From a virus: 51,701 bases of DNA. Both the position numbers and the translations under genes were made by a program. The notes beneath the pieces are model-generated. The model worked only from the letters and a program-made list of their open reading frames with translations, did not search any database and was not told the origin of the DNA. The DNA is taken from positions 1-51,701 of the IMG/VR virus record IMGVR_UViG_3300045988_094113; one strand, written 5' to 3'. Shown here piece by piece: positions 3,432-43,826 of this stretch (positions are counted from its first letter, which is position 1; the number at the start of each line of letters is the position of its first letter).

Positions 3432-4391
3432 ATGGTAGAAAGTGTTACAATAGTAAACAAAGAGAGTGGTGAACAAATAGAGATTGGAACAGGAGCGAAT
3501 TATGTTCTTGATTCCGTTGATTGGGATTCTCCATCAGTAACAATGCAATCATATAGAACTCCATTTCAAGTTGGTAAAACATTATCTGGTGTAGTGGTCG
3601 GCACAAGAAAGCCGACCATAACCGGGTATATCATTGCAGATGTTACAAAGATAAACAGTCTTGGAATGACATGGGAAGAATATAACAAAAGACAAAAACA
3701 AGAGATAGAACAAAAGAAGAAAGAATTAAACAAACTAATATCTGTGTATCAAGATGTTACAATAAAAGTAGGAGAATATAACTTAGACGCAAGACCAACA
3801 GGTTTTGTGAAGTATTCAACAGACAGCAAAGAAAACAATGAGATATTGTGTTTATTCAGTATAGAATTTGAATGTTTTAATCCAATGTTTTACAAACAAA
3901 GTAAGACAGTTGTGCTTGCGACTACAGAAAGCAAATTTACATTTCCTATGATACTGACAAGTGACACAAAAGACGAATATGCAGTATTTGGAGAGATAGC
4001 AAAAAGACAAAGCATGATTGCTGAGAACGATGGTGATGTTGATGTAGGTTGCACAATCATAATACAGGCAAAAGGTGGGGAAATAAAAAATCCAAAAGTT
4101 TATAATGTGACAACTGGTGAGTACATACAATTAACAAATATGACTCTTAAAAATGGAGAGTGGCTTGTTATAACAACAGAAATAGGCGAGGAAGATGTCT
4201 TATACTATAACATATACAATGGTTCTGTAAGTTCTGCAAGACGTATTTCAAGCGTTGATGTTGGAAGTAGTTTTTTCAAAATACGAAGAGGTAGTGCGTA
4301 TTATGGTTATTCTGTTAGTTCACAATATGAAAACAATATGGATATGAGATTGACATATACAGAAAGATATGCGAATATAGAGGAAATGTGA
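3432..4391 (+). CDS. Distal tail protein (Dit-like)
   Basis: 319 aa directly after tape measure; synteny and size. Confidence 0.65.
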   Translation: MVESVTIVNKESGEQIEIGTGANYVLDSVDWDSPSVTMQSYRTPFQVGKTLSGVVVGTRKPTITGYIIADVTKINSLGMTWEEYNKRQKQEIEQKKKELNKLISVYQDVTIKVGEYNLDARPTGFVKYSTDSKENNEILCLFSIEFECFNPMFYKQSKTVVLATTESKFTFPMILTSDTKDEYAVFGEIAKRQSMIAENDGDVDVGCTIIIQAKGGEIKNPKVYNVTTGEYIQLTNMTLKNGEWLVITTEIGEEDVLYYNIYNGSVSSARRISSVDVGSSFFKIRRGSAYYGYSVSSQYENNMDMRLTYTERYANIEEM

Positions 4392-7345: not shown

Positions 7346-7485
7346 TGACATCTAAAGCAAGTATACACGTTACAAAGTCGACAAGGGTTACAAGAACAAA
7401 AGTTTCAAAATCTGGAAAAACTAAAAGCGGAACAAAGCGTTGTCCAGTTTGCGGTAAATATATGGGGCGTGTAAAGAATGGATAA
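7345..7485 (+). CDS. 46-aa highly basic peptide with CPVC motif (not in ORF track)
   Basis: ATG overlaps upstream stop (taATG); its stop overlaps next start (ATGgataa); 13 K/R, no D/E. Confidence 0.45.
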   Translation: MTSKASIHVTKSTRVTRTKVSKSGKTKSGTKRCPVCGKYMGRVKNG

Positions 7486-7711
7486 AGCGAATAGTGAAAC
7501 AAGAAAGAAACTAAGAGAGATAACAAACGTAAAAGATTTTGAAAATCTGTTAGAACAAATTATGTTATCAGAAGAGGAAAAGCAAATTCTATGGATGCAT
7601 TACAAAGAAGAAAAGAGTTTGCTTTATATTGCTGATATATTAGGAATGTCAGAAACAACGATTAAAAAGAAGCATAGAAAAATTCTGATGAAGATTGGTA
7701 AAGCATTTTAG
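7478..7711 (+). CDS. Sigma-70 region 4-like HTH protein (possible late transcription regulator)
   Basis: 77 aa; LSEEEKQILWMHYKEEKSLLYIADILGMSETTIKKKHRKIL matches the ECF sigma region 4 pattern. Confidence 0.6.
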   Translation: MDKANSETRKKLREITNVKDFENLLEQIMLSEEEKQILWMHYKEEKSLLYIADILGMSETTIKKKHRKILMKIGKAF

Positions 7712-31870: not shown

Positions 31871-32280
31871 AAAAAATGCAAAAGGTAAAAAAAAGTGTTT
31901 TAAAAACTATGTTAGAAACATTTATAGAATTGTTGATTGCGTTTAAATATGCAGTCATTGAAGAGTTAGGAAAGATTGCTATAGTGGTACAAATAATAAT
32001 TCCAATAATCTGTTTTTATGCAGGAATGGATATGAAAACATTTGTTTTTGTAATAGTGCTACTAACAGTTATAGTGAAATATATTAAAGAGGTGGGATAC
32101 AAATTAAATAGTGTAAGCGAAAGAGGATTTCCACTTCCGGGGCATAGGTTTACAAAAATGGATAATAATGGATTCATAATGGTTAAGGATGAAGATATGC
32201 AAGAAGCAATACTATATTTATGTGATGTTGAAAATTATCTAAGAAATAAAGGGTTGATAAAAGATGATGATACCGTGTAA
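31867..32280 (+). CDS. Membrane protein (two TM helices)
   Basis: 137 aa; IAIVVQIIIPIICFYAG and FVFVIVLLTVIV. Confidence 0.5.
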   Translation: MKKMQKVKKSVLKTMLETFIELLIAFKYAVIEELGKIAIVVQIIIPIICFYAGMDMKTFVFVIVLLTVIVKYIKEVGYKLNSVSERGFPLPGHRFTKMDNNGFIMVKDEDMQEAILYLCDVENYLRNKGLIKDDDTV

Positions 32281-32464
32281 GGGTTGCATTGATAGAAGTG
32301 CAGAGTGCCACATAAACTGCAAGAAATATAAGGACTATCAAAAGGTTGTTAAAAGGGTAAGAAAAGAGCGCATAAAACAAAAGCAAAAAGAAAGTTGTAG
32401 TTTTGGAAGTGCATACTATACGATGGTAAAAGAAAACTTGAAAAAAATAAATAAAAAGCATTGA
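32264..32464 (+). CDS. Small Cys-rich basic protein
   Basis: 66 aa; CKGCIDRSAECHINC; its TGA stop lies inside the next -35 box. Confidence 0.5.
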   Translation: MMIPCKGCIDRSAECHINCKKYKDYQKVVKRVRKERIKQKQKESCSFGSAYYTMVKENLKKINKKH

Positions 32465-32492
32465 CAAGCAGTAACTCTTATGGTAATATAAT
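32461..32492 (+). promoter_or_regulatory. Sigma-A-type promoter, extended -10
   Basis: TTGACA-17-(TGG)TAATAT. Confidence 0.65.
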
Positions 32493-32496
32493 CATA

Positions 32497-32683
32497 GGAG
32501 TTATAAAGAGGATAGTTATAAATAAGTGACAGCCGGAGAATGTCAGCCAGTGAAAGGAATAAACCTTATTGTTTGCCCCCTTCGTAATTGGTAAGAAACT
32601 TTTAAAAAAAATATATTAAGAGTTCAATCACTCTAAGACAATAAGGTTTAATATATAGCAGGGGTTCGCCCCTGCTTGTTTTA
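32497..32683 (+). ncRNA. Predicted structured leader / short terminated transcript, about 185 nt
   Basis: No ORF; 9-nt direct repeat agttataaa twice; 12-bp long-range helix 32561-32572 with 32638-32649; ends at a strong terminator. Confidence 0.4.
32657..32683 (+). terminator. Strong intrinsic terminator 35 nt upstream of the next start codon
   Basis: agcagggg-ttcg-cccctgct then tgtttt. Confidence 0.8.
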
Positions 32684-32718
32684 GTATTACAAATAAAAAG
32701 AATAGGAGAGAGCAAAGC

Positions 32719-33228
32719 ATGGGATTAAAAAAAGGACAAGTGCCAAAGCCATATGAAGACGGTATGCTTATAAATATGCGTGACAGAACACCGGAAGAAC
32801 GTCATGAGATAGCAATGAAAGGTGTAGAAGCAAGAAGAAAAAAGAAAGAACGAAATATGGCTTTGCAGAACTGTATGCGGCAGTTATTGGAAATGAAAAC
32901 AAACAGTGATAAGAAAAAACAGATTTTAAAGAATTTTGGTTTTACAGATGAAGAATTAACAAACCAGAGCTTACTTATGGTTGCATTATTCCAAAAAGGT
33001 TTAACAGGTGACGTTGGTGCTATAAAAGAGATAACGCAGATGATGGATAAACTTGATATGTTCAAGAAAACAGGAAAGATACAAAACAATGTAACTATAA
33101 ACCTTGTAACACAAGGGGAAAGTTATACACCTACAGCGCAAGATGAAGAGGAAATATGGAAAGCAGAAAATGCAGAAGAATGGATGGAAGAAGAGGATGA
33201 AGAATGGGGCAATGAAATCTATGAGTAA
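32719..33228 (+). CDS. Putative terminase small subunit
   Basis: 169 aa; basic N-terminal half, GLTGDVGAIKEI motif, acidic tail; weak motif-level call. Confidence 0.35.
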   Translation: MGLKKGQVPKPYEDGMLINMRDRTPEERHEIAMKGVEARRKKKERNMALQNCMRQLLEMKTNSDKKKQILKNFGFTDEELTNQSLLMVALFQKGLTGDVGAIKEITQMMDKLDMFKKTGKIQNNVTINLVTQGESYTPTAQDEEEIWKAENAEEWMEEEDEEWGNEIYE

Positions 33229-33409
33229 TATCTTAGATGTGTTTTCTAAGGAAAATAAGCGATTAAATTCAATAAGCAGGATAAATCCTAGTATAAATAA
33301 TAAAAATGGCTTAAATCGCAAATTAGGGGCATTAGAAAGCAAGTCAGAATTGCAGTGGATAAGCGAACATGTAAAAGAACCTAAAATTTTATATAATATT
33401 TTAAAATAA
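33212..33409 (+). CDS. Hypothetical protein
   Basis: about 65 aa; the track ORF start at 33143 overlaps the upstream gene. Confidence 0.35.
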   Translation: MKSMSNILDVFSKENKRLNSISRINPSINNKNGLNRKLGALESKSELQWISEHVKEPKILYNILK

Positions 33410-33412
33410 TAC

Positions 33413-33441
33413 TTGACATATATTTTGTTATATTATATAAT
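33413..33441 (+). promoter_or_regulatory. Sigma-A-type promoter
   Basis: TTGACA-17-TATAAT. Confidence 0.65.
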
Positions 33442-35658: not shown

Positions 35659-35690
35659 AAGCACGTTGTAAAATACGTGCTTATTTTATT
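35659..35690 (+). terminator. Intrinsic terminator
   Basis: aagcacgt-8 nt-acgtgctt then attttatt. Confidence 0.7.
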
Positions 35691-37070: not shown

Positions 37071-37142
37071 TGCCCTATGGCGAAATGGTAACGCACAAGA
37101 ATTTGACTCTTGTAATTGTTGGTTCGAGTCCAACTAGGGTAG
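37071..37142 (+). tRNA. tRNA-Gln (anticodon UUG)
   Basis: Hand-folded cloverleaf: acceptor tgcccta/tagggta (U1-A72), D arm gcg/cgc, anticodon stem caaga/tcttg with loop atTTGac, T arm gttgg-ttcgagt-ccaac. Confidence 0.85.
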
Positions 37143-37747: not shown

Positions 37748-38800
37748 ATGTCAGAATTGAACATCAATGTTTCTAATCGTTTTGCAAATTTTTTGACAGA
37801 CTGGGAATATGAACAATACTTATTATTTGGTGGGTATGGTTCTGGAAAGTCATATCATGTAGCGTTAAAGATTATACTTAAATTGATGGAAGAAAAAAGA
37901 ACAGCACTTGTAGTAAGACAGGTAAAAGATACAATACGTGAAAGCTGTTTTGCATTATTCAAAGAAATCCTAACAGAATTAGGAATATTATCTTCCAGAG
38001 AAGCACGATACACAAGTAGTACAAATGGTGAAGTAATAGCAATAGCAAGTCCAATGGAGATACGTTTTCCGAATGGTAGCAGGATAATATTCAAAGGATT
38101 GGACAATGTAGAAAAGATTAAGTCTGTACATGGTGTAAGTATTGTATGGATGGAAGAATGCAGTGAGATAACATTTGCGGCATATACAGAGCTTTTAGGG
38201 CGTGTTCGTGAACCAAATAAAACATTACATTTTATAATGACAACAAACCCTATAGGAAAAGAAAATTGGGTGTATGATACATTTTTCGTACATACAGATG
38301 AAAAGGGAAAAGAGCATATAATACAAAGTGAAAAAGAGGTATACAAAAAGCGCACGCTTGTAAATAAAAATAATGGTGTGTACTATCATCATAGTTTGCC
38401 GGATGATAATCCATTTTTACCAGAAAGCTATATAAAACGTTTGGATAGCCTAAAGAATAGTGATATGCATTTATGGCTTGTAGCAAGATGGGGGAGGTTT
38501 GGAGCAAGTGGTTTAAGAGTATTACCAAAATTTACAGTTGCAAAAAATGCAAAAGAGTTTGCAAATGCAGTAAACAATATATCATCACATTACCATTTCT
38601 TCGGTTTAGATTTTGGTTTTGAAACATCATACAATGCACTAATGAGCTGTGCAGTCGATGATACAAACAAGATACTATATATCTATGATGAAGTATATAG
38701 AAATCATATAACAGATAATAACTTTATAAAACTTGACAGTGTACAAAAAGTAAAGGAAAGAGCAGAAAGGTGTGAACAGCCTATTTTCGCAGATGCGGCT
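37748..38800 (+). CDS. terL: Terminase large subunit, exon 1 (ATPase and start of nuclease domain)
   Basis: Walker A GGYGSGKS, Walker B IVWMEE; ends ...PIFADAA at a U that can pair with G in a predicted P1. Confidence 0.85.
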
Positions 38801-39640
38801 AGAAATGTTTTGGTCGCGTAAAATCGCATTAAATACTGGAAACGCTTTAGAGTCGTTAGTACCATAGAGTGATAATCTAACGAATTAGCCAACCAGTAGT
38901 AGTTTAAATAAACGGAGGTAAAATAATATGAAAGTAAAACAAATAAATAAAATAAAAGGATTAGAACATATAAATGATGGGTATTATGTTTCGTATGATG
39001 GCAGAGTTTTTTCGTTGAGAGATAAACATGGAAATGTGAGCATGAGTAATAGACATGAGTTAAAACAATATGAAAAGACAGGTGGTTATTTAAATGTAGC
39101 ATTGACAACGAAACATAATAAAACAAATTATTTGCGTGTTAACAGATTAGTAGCATTAGCATTTGTTAAAGGTAGGACAGCAAAAAGAAAATATGTGAAT
39201 CATATGGATGAAAATAGAAAAAATAATAATGCAGATAATTTGAATTGGGTAACACCAAGAGAGAATAATAATTGGAGTTTAGCGAAAACAGTTTATATGT
39301 ATGATTTGAAAGGGAATTATGTTAAGAGTTATATATCAACAACAGATGCAAGTAATGATGGATTTAATAGAAGTCATGTTGCAAATGTTTGTAGATGTAT
39401 AGAAAGACAACATAAAGGTTATTTATTTTCATACCAAAAGCTTTCAAAAGAACAAGCTATTCAACGACTATCGAAAACCAGTTATATTAGATATCCTAAA
39501 TATGATGGTAAGTAGAGTACACACAAGCGTGTGGAAATGTGCGAAACAGAAATGTTAAGATATAGTCTAATCTGTAGCGAGAGCTACAGCAGTTCATAAG
39601 AGAACGTATATAGAAGTAGCGAACTATATAGAATAAAATG
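38801..39640 (+). mobile_element. Group I intron (840 nt) with a homing-endonuclease ORF
   Basis: Joining the exons restores ADAA/EPKSI in frame; P1 gcggcU with GGUCGC (38812-38817); last intron base is G; multiple hairpins in the 3' 125 nt. Confidence 0.75.
38928..39515 (+). CDS. HNH homing endonuclease (NUMOD4-like N-terminus)
   Basis: GYYVSYDGRVFS; VNHMDENRKNNNADNLNWVTPREN; GGAGG RBS. Confidence 0.85.
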   Translation: MKVKQINKIKGLEHINDGYYVSYDGRVFSLRDKHGNVSMSNRHELKQYEKTGGYLNVALTTKHNKTNYLRVNRLVALAFVKGRTAKRKYVNHMDENRKNNNADNLNWVTPRENNNWSLAKTVYMYDLKGNYVKSYISTTDASNDGFNRSHVANVCRCIERQHKGYLFSYQKLSKEQAIQRLSKTSYIRYPKYDGK

Positions 39641-39946
39641 GAACCAAAATCAATACAGTATTATAGGCAAGAAGGATTTACGATGTATGGTTGTAAAAAG
39701 TATGCAGGAAGTAAGTTACAAAATGTGAAGAAAATAAAAAGATTCAACAAAATCGTATGTTCCCCAAAATGTAAAAACACAATAAGGGAATTAAAAGATT
39801 TAACATATGCAAAGGATAAGCAAGGTAATATTATTTATGATGAATTTAATATTGATGCACATACATTAGATGGTATTGCATACGCATTAAACAATTATAC
39901 AGTAGCGGATTTAAAGGACTATAAGGCAAATACAAAGGTAGGATAG
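39641..39946 (+). CDS. terL: Terminase large subunit, exon 2
   Basis: [13 protein letters not shown]...[13 protein letters not shown]...[12 protein letters not shown] matches the C-terminal nuclease region of PBSX-type terminases. Confidence 0.8.
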
Positions 39947-43797: not shown

Positions 43798-43826
43798 AGG
43801 TGGCAGAAATGCCACCTTTATTTATT
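43798..43826 (+). terminator. Intrinsic terminator
   Basis: aggtggca-gaaa-tgccacct then ttatttatt. Confidence 0.85.

Follow-up and report, generated by a model that had tools for sequence, protein, structure and literature searches.

A conserved leader (attenuator) RNA lies directly ahead of the probable small terminase gene (terS) in the 51,701-nucleotide phage genome analysed here, which we call the window throughout; it has no Rfam match, and the literature that we searched does not describe it. The same cassette is common to about 20 lineages of related ~50-kb phages, whose downstream proteins are down to 45% identical to that of the window. Its order is TTGACA-17-TGnTAnnnT, a 5' module, a long-range helix that we call P3 (0-24 bp), a terminator and, 20-61 nt further on, the gene for a 169-aa protein. 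Comparison of these sequences leads us to propose, tentatively and with slightly less than even confidence, that the leader acts in cis as a factor-dependent checkpoint on read-through into terS.

Parts of the leader and their conservation

The earlier note on this DNA had described a promoter, a structured leader and a strong terminator just before the packaging genes. All of these parts are present, and comparison with relatives shows that they form a real, conserved unit, made up with its flanking genes of the following features:

32264-32464, + strand: 66-aa Cys-rich ORF with the motif P-C-x2-C-x2-R-x3-C-H-x2-C-x2-Y, then a long basic helix; its stop overlaps the -35 hexamer
32461-32489, + strand: predicted sigma-A promoter, with -35 TTGACA (32461-32466), a 17-nt spacer, TG (32481-32482) and TAATAT (32484-32489), giving TGgTAATAT, an extended -10
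32494-32556, + strand: 5' module, its extent given by the covariance model R1 (70.1 bits, E = 4e-18)
32496-32500, + strand: purine motif AGGAG at the 5' end of the RNA, near-invariant in alignments and Shine-Dalgarno-like
32501-32521, + strand: hairpin P1, with arms TTATAA (32501-32506) and TTATAA (32516-32521) and loop AGAGGATAG, which holds a near-invariant GGAU (32510-32513)
32522-32548, + strand: linker AUAAGUG and hairpin P2, in which TGACA (32527-32531) pairs with TGTCA (32541-32545), then GCC
32560-32650, + strand: domain P3, a helix of 32560-32574 with 32636-32650 that encloses 61 nt (32575-32635)
32657-32688, + strand: intrinsic terminator with an 8-bp stem (six G-C pairs), a UUCG loop and the tail UGUUUUAGUAUU
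32704-33228, + strand: 169-aa gene of phrog_2412 with ribosome-binding site AGGAGAG (32704-32710), ATG at 32719 and a weak DUF5681 match

The promoter shows 10 of 12 consensus matches plus the TG, and transcription is predicted to start at about 32494-32497. As claimed earlier, the leader carries no ORF: none of at least 30 aa lies on the + strand within 32465-32718. Promoter-like matches are no commoner than chance (17 found versus 16 expected) and the fold of the whole leader as a single sequence is not significant (z = -1.3), so the case for the leader has to be made by comparison with relatives. We collected these with blastn (CS266P1-4), with protein-guided searches (IMG/VR, MAG and metagenome loci) and with a sequence-pattern scan (lineage L113). 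Carriers of the cassette are the Clostridium phages CS266P1-4, Dulem virus 36 and contigs from IMG/VR or metagenomes; they are phages of gut Clostridia.

Promoter geometry was kept in 37 of the 37 loci first collected and also in more distant lineages, with a spacer of 17 nt (once 18 nt) whose sequence diverges. It was also kept where the Cys-rich ORF is missing, which shows that the promoter is not a by-product of that coding sequence. Identity between the window and lineage L030 reaches 95% in the 5' module and 100% in the P3 arms, compared with 51-70% at the third codon positions of the flanking genes. In L113, about 85 extra nt (4033-4117) separate the promoter from the 5' module, which places the module away from the very start of the transcript.

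The earlier note had also pointed to covariation in related phages as a check on the leader. We made this comparison, and it came out clearly for hairpin P1. Compensatory changes were observed at 6 of 6 P1 pairs in the alignment of relatives, where 96% of cells are paired and at least 10 different stem sequences occur; 0 of 500 column shuffles reached this covariation score, and slid controls were paired at only 31-44%. The GGAU loop is kept in 31 of 32 aligned sequences. This hairpin also accounts for what had been taken for a 9-nt direct repeat and a possible part of a pac site. The sequence AGTTATAAA does occur at both 32499 and 32514, but TTATAA is its own reverse complement, so the two copies are really the P1 arms, which covary in relatives; a direct repeat belonging to a pac site is not borne out.

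The linker and P2 follow the consensus AAGUG-RYAGCC ... AAAU-RYCWRCC. A P2 hairpin of 4-7 bp is predicted in every lineage, with a primary sequence that is highly conserved despite a pairing register that shifts by clade. Across lineages at 45% identity, about 20 nucleotides of P1 and P2 are near-invariant, and these conserved nucleotides are located in loops and linkers. The AGGAG motif that precedes P1 may be a 5' stabiliser or a protein site. A leader peptide (AUN in the P1 loop, then AAG-UGG-UAG, 5-6 codons) was considered for the same stretch and rejected: its start is mostly AUU or AUA, its codons amount to no more than the covarying arm of P1, and L012, L035, L088 and L091 do not keep the frame.

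The long-range helix of P3, originally given as 12 bp, comprises 13 Watson-Crick bp, or 15 bp counting G-U pairs; a helix of at least 12 bp arose in 0.2% of 1000 dinucleotide-preserving shuffles. Relatives carry a P3 helix at the same place in at least eight unrelated sequences, 11-24 bp long and enclosing 46-132 nt, and stepwise compensatory changes are found inside the CS266P-type clade. P3 has shrunk to a small hairpin or been lost in L087, L089 and Dulem virus 36, which makes it an optional domain. Among lineages its interior holds no universal motif (CCUCG occurs in about five, AGCCAU in about seven). An invertible segment between the P3 arms was rejected as well, the interiors in relatives being collinear with no sign of inversion.

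The GC-rich terminator is confirmed as AGCAGGGG-TTCG-CCCCTGCT at 32657-32676, followed by TGTTTT, a G+C-rich hairpin and then a U-rich tract, the two parts expected of an intrinsic terminator. In 16 of 16 representative lineages a hairpin with a T-rich tail occupies this site, built from 12 different stems, and it ends 31-61 nt before the start codon in representatives and about 20 nt before it in Dulem virus 36. Both P3 and terminator stem sequences differ in nearly every lineage, and relatives place the terminator anywhere from about 40 to 250 nt beyond the 5' module. Taken together, the comparison of the module, P1, P3 and the terminator points to selection on RNA, or at least single-stranded, structure plus specific nucleotides. 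Between the stem arms of the L029 terminator (2930-2950) a small inversion is seen: where sister lineages have GACAAGG-GCAA-CCTTGTC, the loop is exactly reverse-complemented in L029 (GACAAGG-TTGC-CCTTGTC).

We then searched for the element elsewhere. Rfam 15 gave no match at gathering score in the window and chance-level matches only at E up to 10 (32000-33200), nothing relevant was found with Rfam in 10 diverse relatives, and ARAGORN reported nothing at the leader site. With R1, the covariance model built from the 5' module, we found no second copy in the 51.7-kb genome, where the next match scores 14.8 bits; this excludes a second copy of the module in the manner of nutL/nutR. No R1 match was found in 150 other genomes of the family of one phage-bearing MAG. 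A protein-independent pattern scan of IMG/VR recovered the module solely in this cassette, plus low-scoring chance matches to R1, the best of which falls in a coding region.

Flanking genes and genome setting

The 169-aa gene behind the terminator had been guessed to encode the small terminase. Its protein matches only phrog_2412, of unknown function, and DUF5681 below threshold; searches for a match to a TerS family, a PDB sequence or a known fold returned none, and AF2 gave a model of low quality (pLDDT 60). Support for the guess came from synteny. A profile search yielded more than 1000 distant representatives of the protein, ten sampled ones being phrog_2412 members, and in 4 of 4 contigs examined the distant phrog_2412 genes abut or overlap terL, directly upstream of it. 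Since these distant relatives lie directly before terL, the 169-aa gene is probably terS.

No promoter was found in the 42 nt between the terminator and the ATG, so terS and the small overlapping ORF at 33143-33409 depend on read-through; the next consensus promoter after terS is at 33413. In the window terL starts at 37748, about 4.5-5 kb downstream of the probable terS, and MazG-like, ParB-like, methylase and tRNA genes lie between the two. The tRNA genes, at 37071 and 37229, are the sole matches of the Rfam and tRNA scans. The terL gene is itself split into an N-terminal part (37748-38821) and a C-terminal part (39638-39946) with an HNH endonuclease ORF (38928-39515) between them. CS266P3 has an identical split-terL layout with I-HmuI-like endonucleases, and the split looks like an intron or a homing-endonuclease insertion.

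A terminator-like hairpin was also seen in an unrelated phage contig (L145:150-310), where AGTAGGA-GAAA-TCCTACT and then TTTTT lie about 90 nt upstream of a phrog_2412 terS. That terS abuts terL, and the hairpin region has no R1 module. A terminator just ahead of terS may therefore be more widespread.

The phage record is complete (51.7 kb, with terminal repeats) and has a G+C content of about 32%, and its + strand carries all genes. About 20 near-consensus promoters are spread over this strand genome-wide. At least 13 promoters on the coding strand are perfect (12/12, TTGACA-N16-18-TATAAT) and several more reach 11/12; some consensus promoters stand ahead of portal and head genes. Examples of the perfect ones are:

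3267, 5954, 10520, 10815, 11172, 11736, 12056, 12450, 25204, 28803, 33413, 43868 and 46880, + strand: perfect 12/12 promoters

This pattern suggests that the phage depends on consensus promoters for host sigma-A all along its genome. Within this setting, the terminator at 32657 is the first strong one on the + strand beyond 23899 and closes the replication-gene block, and nowhere else in the genome does a terminator separate a gene from its promoter. Further along the + strand, the terminators at 35659 and 43798 each have a near-consensus promoter of their own behind them (35722 and 43868). At 16058-16090 terminator and promoter overlap: the -35 of the near-consensus promoter that comes next (TTGACT-17-TATAAT with TG) lies within the terminator hairpin (AGGCTTGACTAATGTCAAGCCT).

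Two proteins of the window had been put forward as candidate factors for the leader. One, encoded at 7478-7711, is a 77-aa protein that consists of a sigma-70 region 4 domain alone (Pfam E = 6e-9), with a terminator at 7710 directly behind its gene. The domain is thus genuine, but nothing ties this protein to the leader. It could bind the -35-like TTGACA, which is unusually frequent in this genome.

The other candidate is the Cys-rich protein encoded immediately upstream, in a position that had been called Q-like. The P, C, R, C, H, C and Y of its motif are invariant and the second cysteine is nearly so (it is Arg in L113, C8R), and the AF2 model (pLDDT 81) consists of an N-terminal knuckle and a single long basic helix. 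We found no Pfam, PHROG, PDB sequence or Foldseek fold match for it, and none to a Q family. The ORF adjoins the promoter in 17 of 18 lineages checked, ending at most 16 nt from the -35, and does so in L113 too. Yet its link to the leader is weakened in three ways: L113 has lost one of the cysteines, the ORF is missing from L035 and Dulem virus 36, which both keep promoter, module, terminator and terS, and distant homologues of the protein occur in other phage contexts without an R1 match. Because its coupling with the RNA is obligatory in neither direction, we rejected the protein as a dedicated factor, though it may still be a partner of the leader.

Proposed read-through control and competing readings

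In the checkpoint that we propose, host sigma-A RNA polymerase would initiate at the near-consensus extended -10 promoter, at about 32496, and transcribe a folded RNA made up of AGGAG, P1 with its GGAU loop, AAGUG, P2 and the variable P3 before it encounters the strong intrinsic terminator (32657-32682). Most transcripts would stop there and accumulate as an abundant ~190-nt RNA with a protective hairpin at either end, and terS (32719-33228) together with the small overlapping ORF would be made only by those polymerases that pass the terminator. The invariant 5' module would set the fraction that reads through, by travelling with the polymerase, by acting on it or by binding a protein. We take this module as the probable recognition site because the window holds no competing pairing and the distance from module to terminator varies. 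Sequence and comparison establish the parts, how they are conserved, the covariation at the RNA level and that terS has no separate promoter; from these we infer that the promoter fires, how efficiently the terminator would work, that a factor takes part and in which direction control would run.

Against the checkpoint stand the adjacent Cys-rich protein, which is dispensable in two lineages, and the downstream terminators, which have promoters of their own, so that a processive function would not be required. Transcripts entering from upstream genes would bear the module as well, and a constitutive antiterminator made of RNA only would then leave the conserved terminator without a point. A consensus promoter placed straight ahead of a terminator would, moreover, fit equally well an RNA that is itself the product. 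The main competitor to the checkpoint builds on this last point and takes the transcript as an abundant small RNA in its own right, encoded by the phage and acting in trans, for instance as a decoy or partner of a host or phage protein through its GGAU loop and AAGUG-RYAGCC, with terS expressed by normal leak through the terminator. Such a role would account for the retention of a consensus promoter immediately before a conserved terminator. It also suits the hairpins at the 5' and 3' ends with their SD-like 5' motif, as in stable Firmicute RNAs, the conserved nucleotides in loops and linkers, a P3 whose size varies as in a scaffold, and the lack of any alternative structure joining module to terminator. 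However, the RNA is fused to terS at 20-61 nt in every lineage, with no promoter between and never elsewhere, which is how a leader behaves, and there is one copy per genome. We consider the small RNA possible but distinctly less probable than the checkpoint. A purely passive arrangement is less probable again, and we hold it to be unlikely: the terminator would insulate the late/packaging block and keep TerS at a low, fixed level, the 5' hairpins would stabilise the transcript, and nothing would be regulated. The terminator does close the replication block, about 20 near-consensus promoters and punctuating terminators are found genome-wide, and a terminator-like hairpin stands ahead of terS in the unrelated contig L145 too. 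What this arrangement leaves unexplained are the ~20 near-invariant P1/P2 nucleotides across 45%-identity lineages and the promoter upstream of the terminator in all lineages, whereas at 43798/43868 it is the terminator that precedes the promoter.

Quite improbable, in our judgement, is the reading in which AAGTGRYAGCC, AAATRYCWRCC and, in some clades, a third GGTAGCC are DNA sites for TerS and part of pac or cosB. Sites of the pac and cos type are commonly located in or beside terS, the downstream gene is probably terS, and RYAGCC-like motifs occur 2-3 times per leader. The covariation of P1, P3 and the terminator is nevertheless an RNA-level signature that recognition of double-stranded DNA would not need, and the record starts of CS266P1-4 are arbitrary relative to the leader site. 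This reading is compatible with the RNA readings rather than exclusive of them.

A riboswitch-like element had also been suggested. We folded leaders up to the terminator loop and scored the P2 region versus the terminator 5' arm against shuffles. In the window, no leader segment pairs with the terminator 5' arm better than chance: the duplex with the P2 region gives -4.3 kcal/mol against a shuffled mean of -5.9 (z = +0.79), and 12.5 kcal/mol is lost when the terminator 3' arm is blocked. In truncated folds, most of the 5' arm of the terminator stays unpaired. With nothing in competition with the terminator hairpin and no Rfam family matched, switching of the riboswitch or zipper kind is unsupported in the window. 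In sharp contrast, the P2 3' arm is complementary to the terminator 5' arm in L089 (1054-1200; 10 perfect bp, z = -4.4) and in L093 (891-1160; z = -3.1), a classic 1:2 / 2:3 / 3:4 attenuator or zipper layout unlike that of the window. One leader family may thus use differing read-through mechanisms. As a general account, a structure-switching attenuator, in which the P2 3' arm would pair with the terminator 5' arm and extend P3 into an antiterminator, draws on the strong complementarity of these two lineages and on its order of weak hairpin, long stem and terminator, which resembles the pLS20 zipper attenuator (PMC13401043). But neither the window (z = +0.8) nor 13 other lineages show this pairing. 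In the large CS266P-type clade, where the complementarity is likewise missing, the 5' arm of the terminator is predicted to be free before its partner is synthesised. Rfam returned no riboswitch match, and we hold this account to be very improbable.

A bolder reading has the 5' module as a new element that modifies the host RNA polymerase or recruits a factor to it, or else has the abundant terminated non-coding RNA capturing a host RNA-binding protein. We think this rather unlikely, a shade less so than the passive arrangement. The GGA in a hairpin loop beside the 5' AGGAG resembles CsrA-type sites.

Control of late and packaging genes is essentially uncharted in phages of gut Clostridia, and the element described here, supported by covariation and without an Rfam match, sits at the boundary of the replication and packaging modules. 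Because the phage family has cultured members, the CS266P phages with their Clostridium host, the proposal is directly testable. A stable small RNA would count among the regulatory RNAs of phages as a new one. A module that acts on RNA polymerase would extend the very few known RNA-based antiterminators by a new class. Either way, the promoter, leader and terminator form a compact part of possible use for expression control in Clostridia.

Comparison with known systems

The earlier note had likened the arrangement to the PR', 6S RNA and tR' of lambda. The likeness extends to a strong promoter, a ~190-nt transcript and an intrinsic terminator, all predicted here, at the entry to late/packaging genes, and to a small gene that ends at the -35 hexamer. 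It stops at the factor and at the reach of the control: there is no Q homologue here, and the later terminators at 35659 and 43798 have their own promoters, so that we see no sign that the late genes as a whole depend on processive read-through as in lambda. The leader RNA is moreover conserved and structured, which Q does not need, and, unlike in lambda, the first transcribed stretch showed no conserved pause element resembling a -10.

In phage Mu, the small zinc-finger protein Com binds the mom leader RNA and acts on translation, not termination. Here too the gene for a zinc-finger-like protein of ~60 aa immediately precedes a structured leader that would gate the next gene. The two proteins have no sequence or fold relation, however, and the coupling of the Cys-rich gene with the RNA is not obligatory.

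Among Gram-positive systems, the zipper-type attenuator cATT of pLS20 has a weak hairpin, a long stem-loop and an intrinsic terminator in a long leader (PMC13401043). The order of elements is the same here, but complementarity between the upstream hairpin and the terminator is found solely in L089 and L093, not in the window. The conAn system of pLS20-type conjugative plasmids consists of a small protein gene and then a structured RNA of 260-600 nt on Gram-positive mobile DNA; its conAn2 RNA carries a short GC-rich stretch and a long-range inverted repeat around a variable core, with poor sequence conservation between systems, and the inverted repeat is dispensable in pLS20 (PMC8191782). Our cassette likewise has a small protein gene followed by a structured RNA whose long-range helix surrounds a variable core. 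It differs in belonging to a phage rather than a conjugative element, in having a promoter between the small gene and the RNA, and in a P3 helix that is maintained by covariation yet lost in minimal variants. The likeness drawn here is one of layout, and the ORFs neighbouring the leader have no family assignment.

The put sites of HK022 (putL and putR) and the Bacillus EAR element are likewise compact two-hairpin RNA modules placed after a promoter and before a terminator. They act independently of distance and without pairing with the terminator, and by analogy the two-hairpin architecture of the leader would be compatible with this mode of action. There is one copy here rather than two, and read-in transcripts would carry the module, so that constitutive action would cancel the conserved terminator; the Rfam scans gave no match, and for put the likeness is one of architecture. 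If the module does act on the polymerase or recruit a factor to it, it would be, to our knowledge, the first antitermination RNA of the put or nut type from a phage of Gram-positive bacteria. Given that no pairing competes with the terminator in the window and that the spacing of module and terminator varies, the logic of the leader would be N/nut-, put- or conAn-like rather than riboswitch-like.
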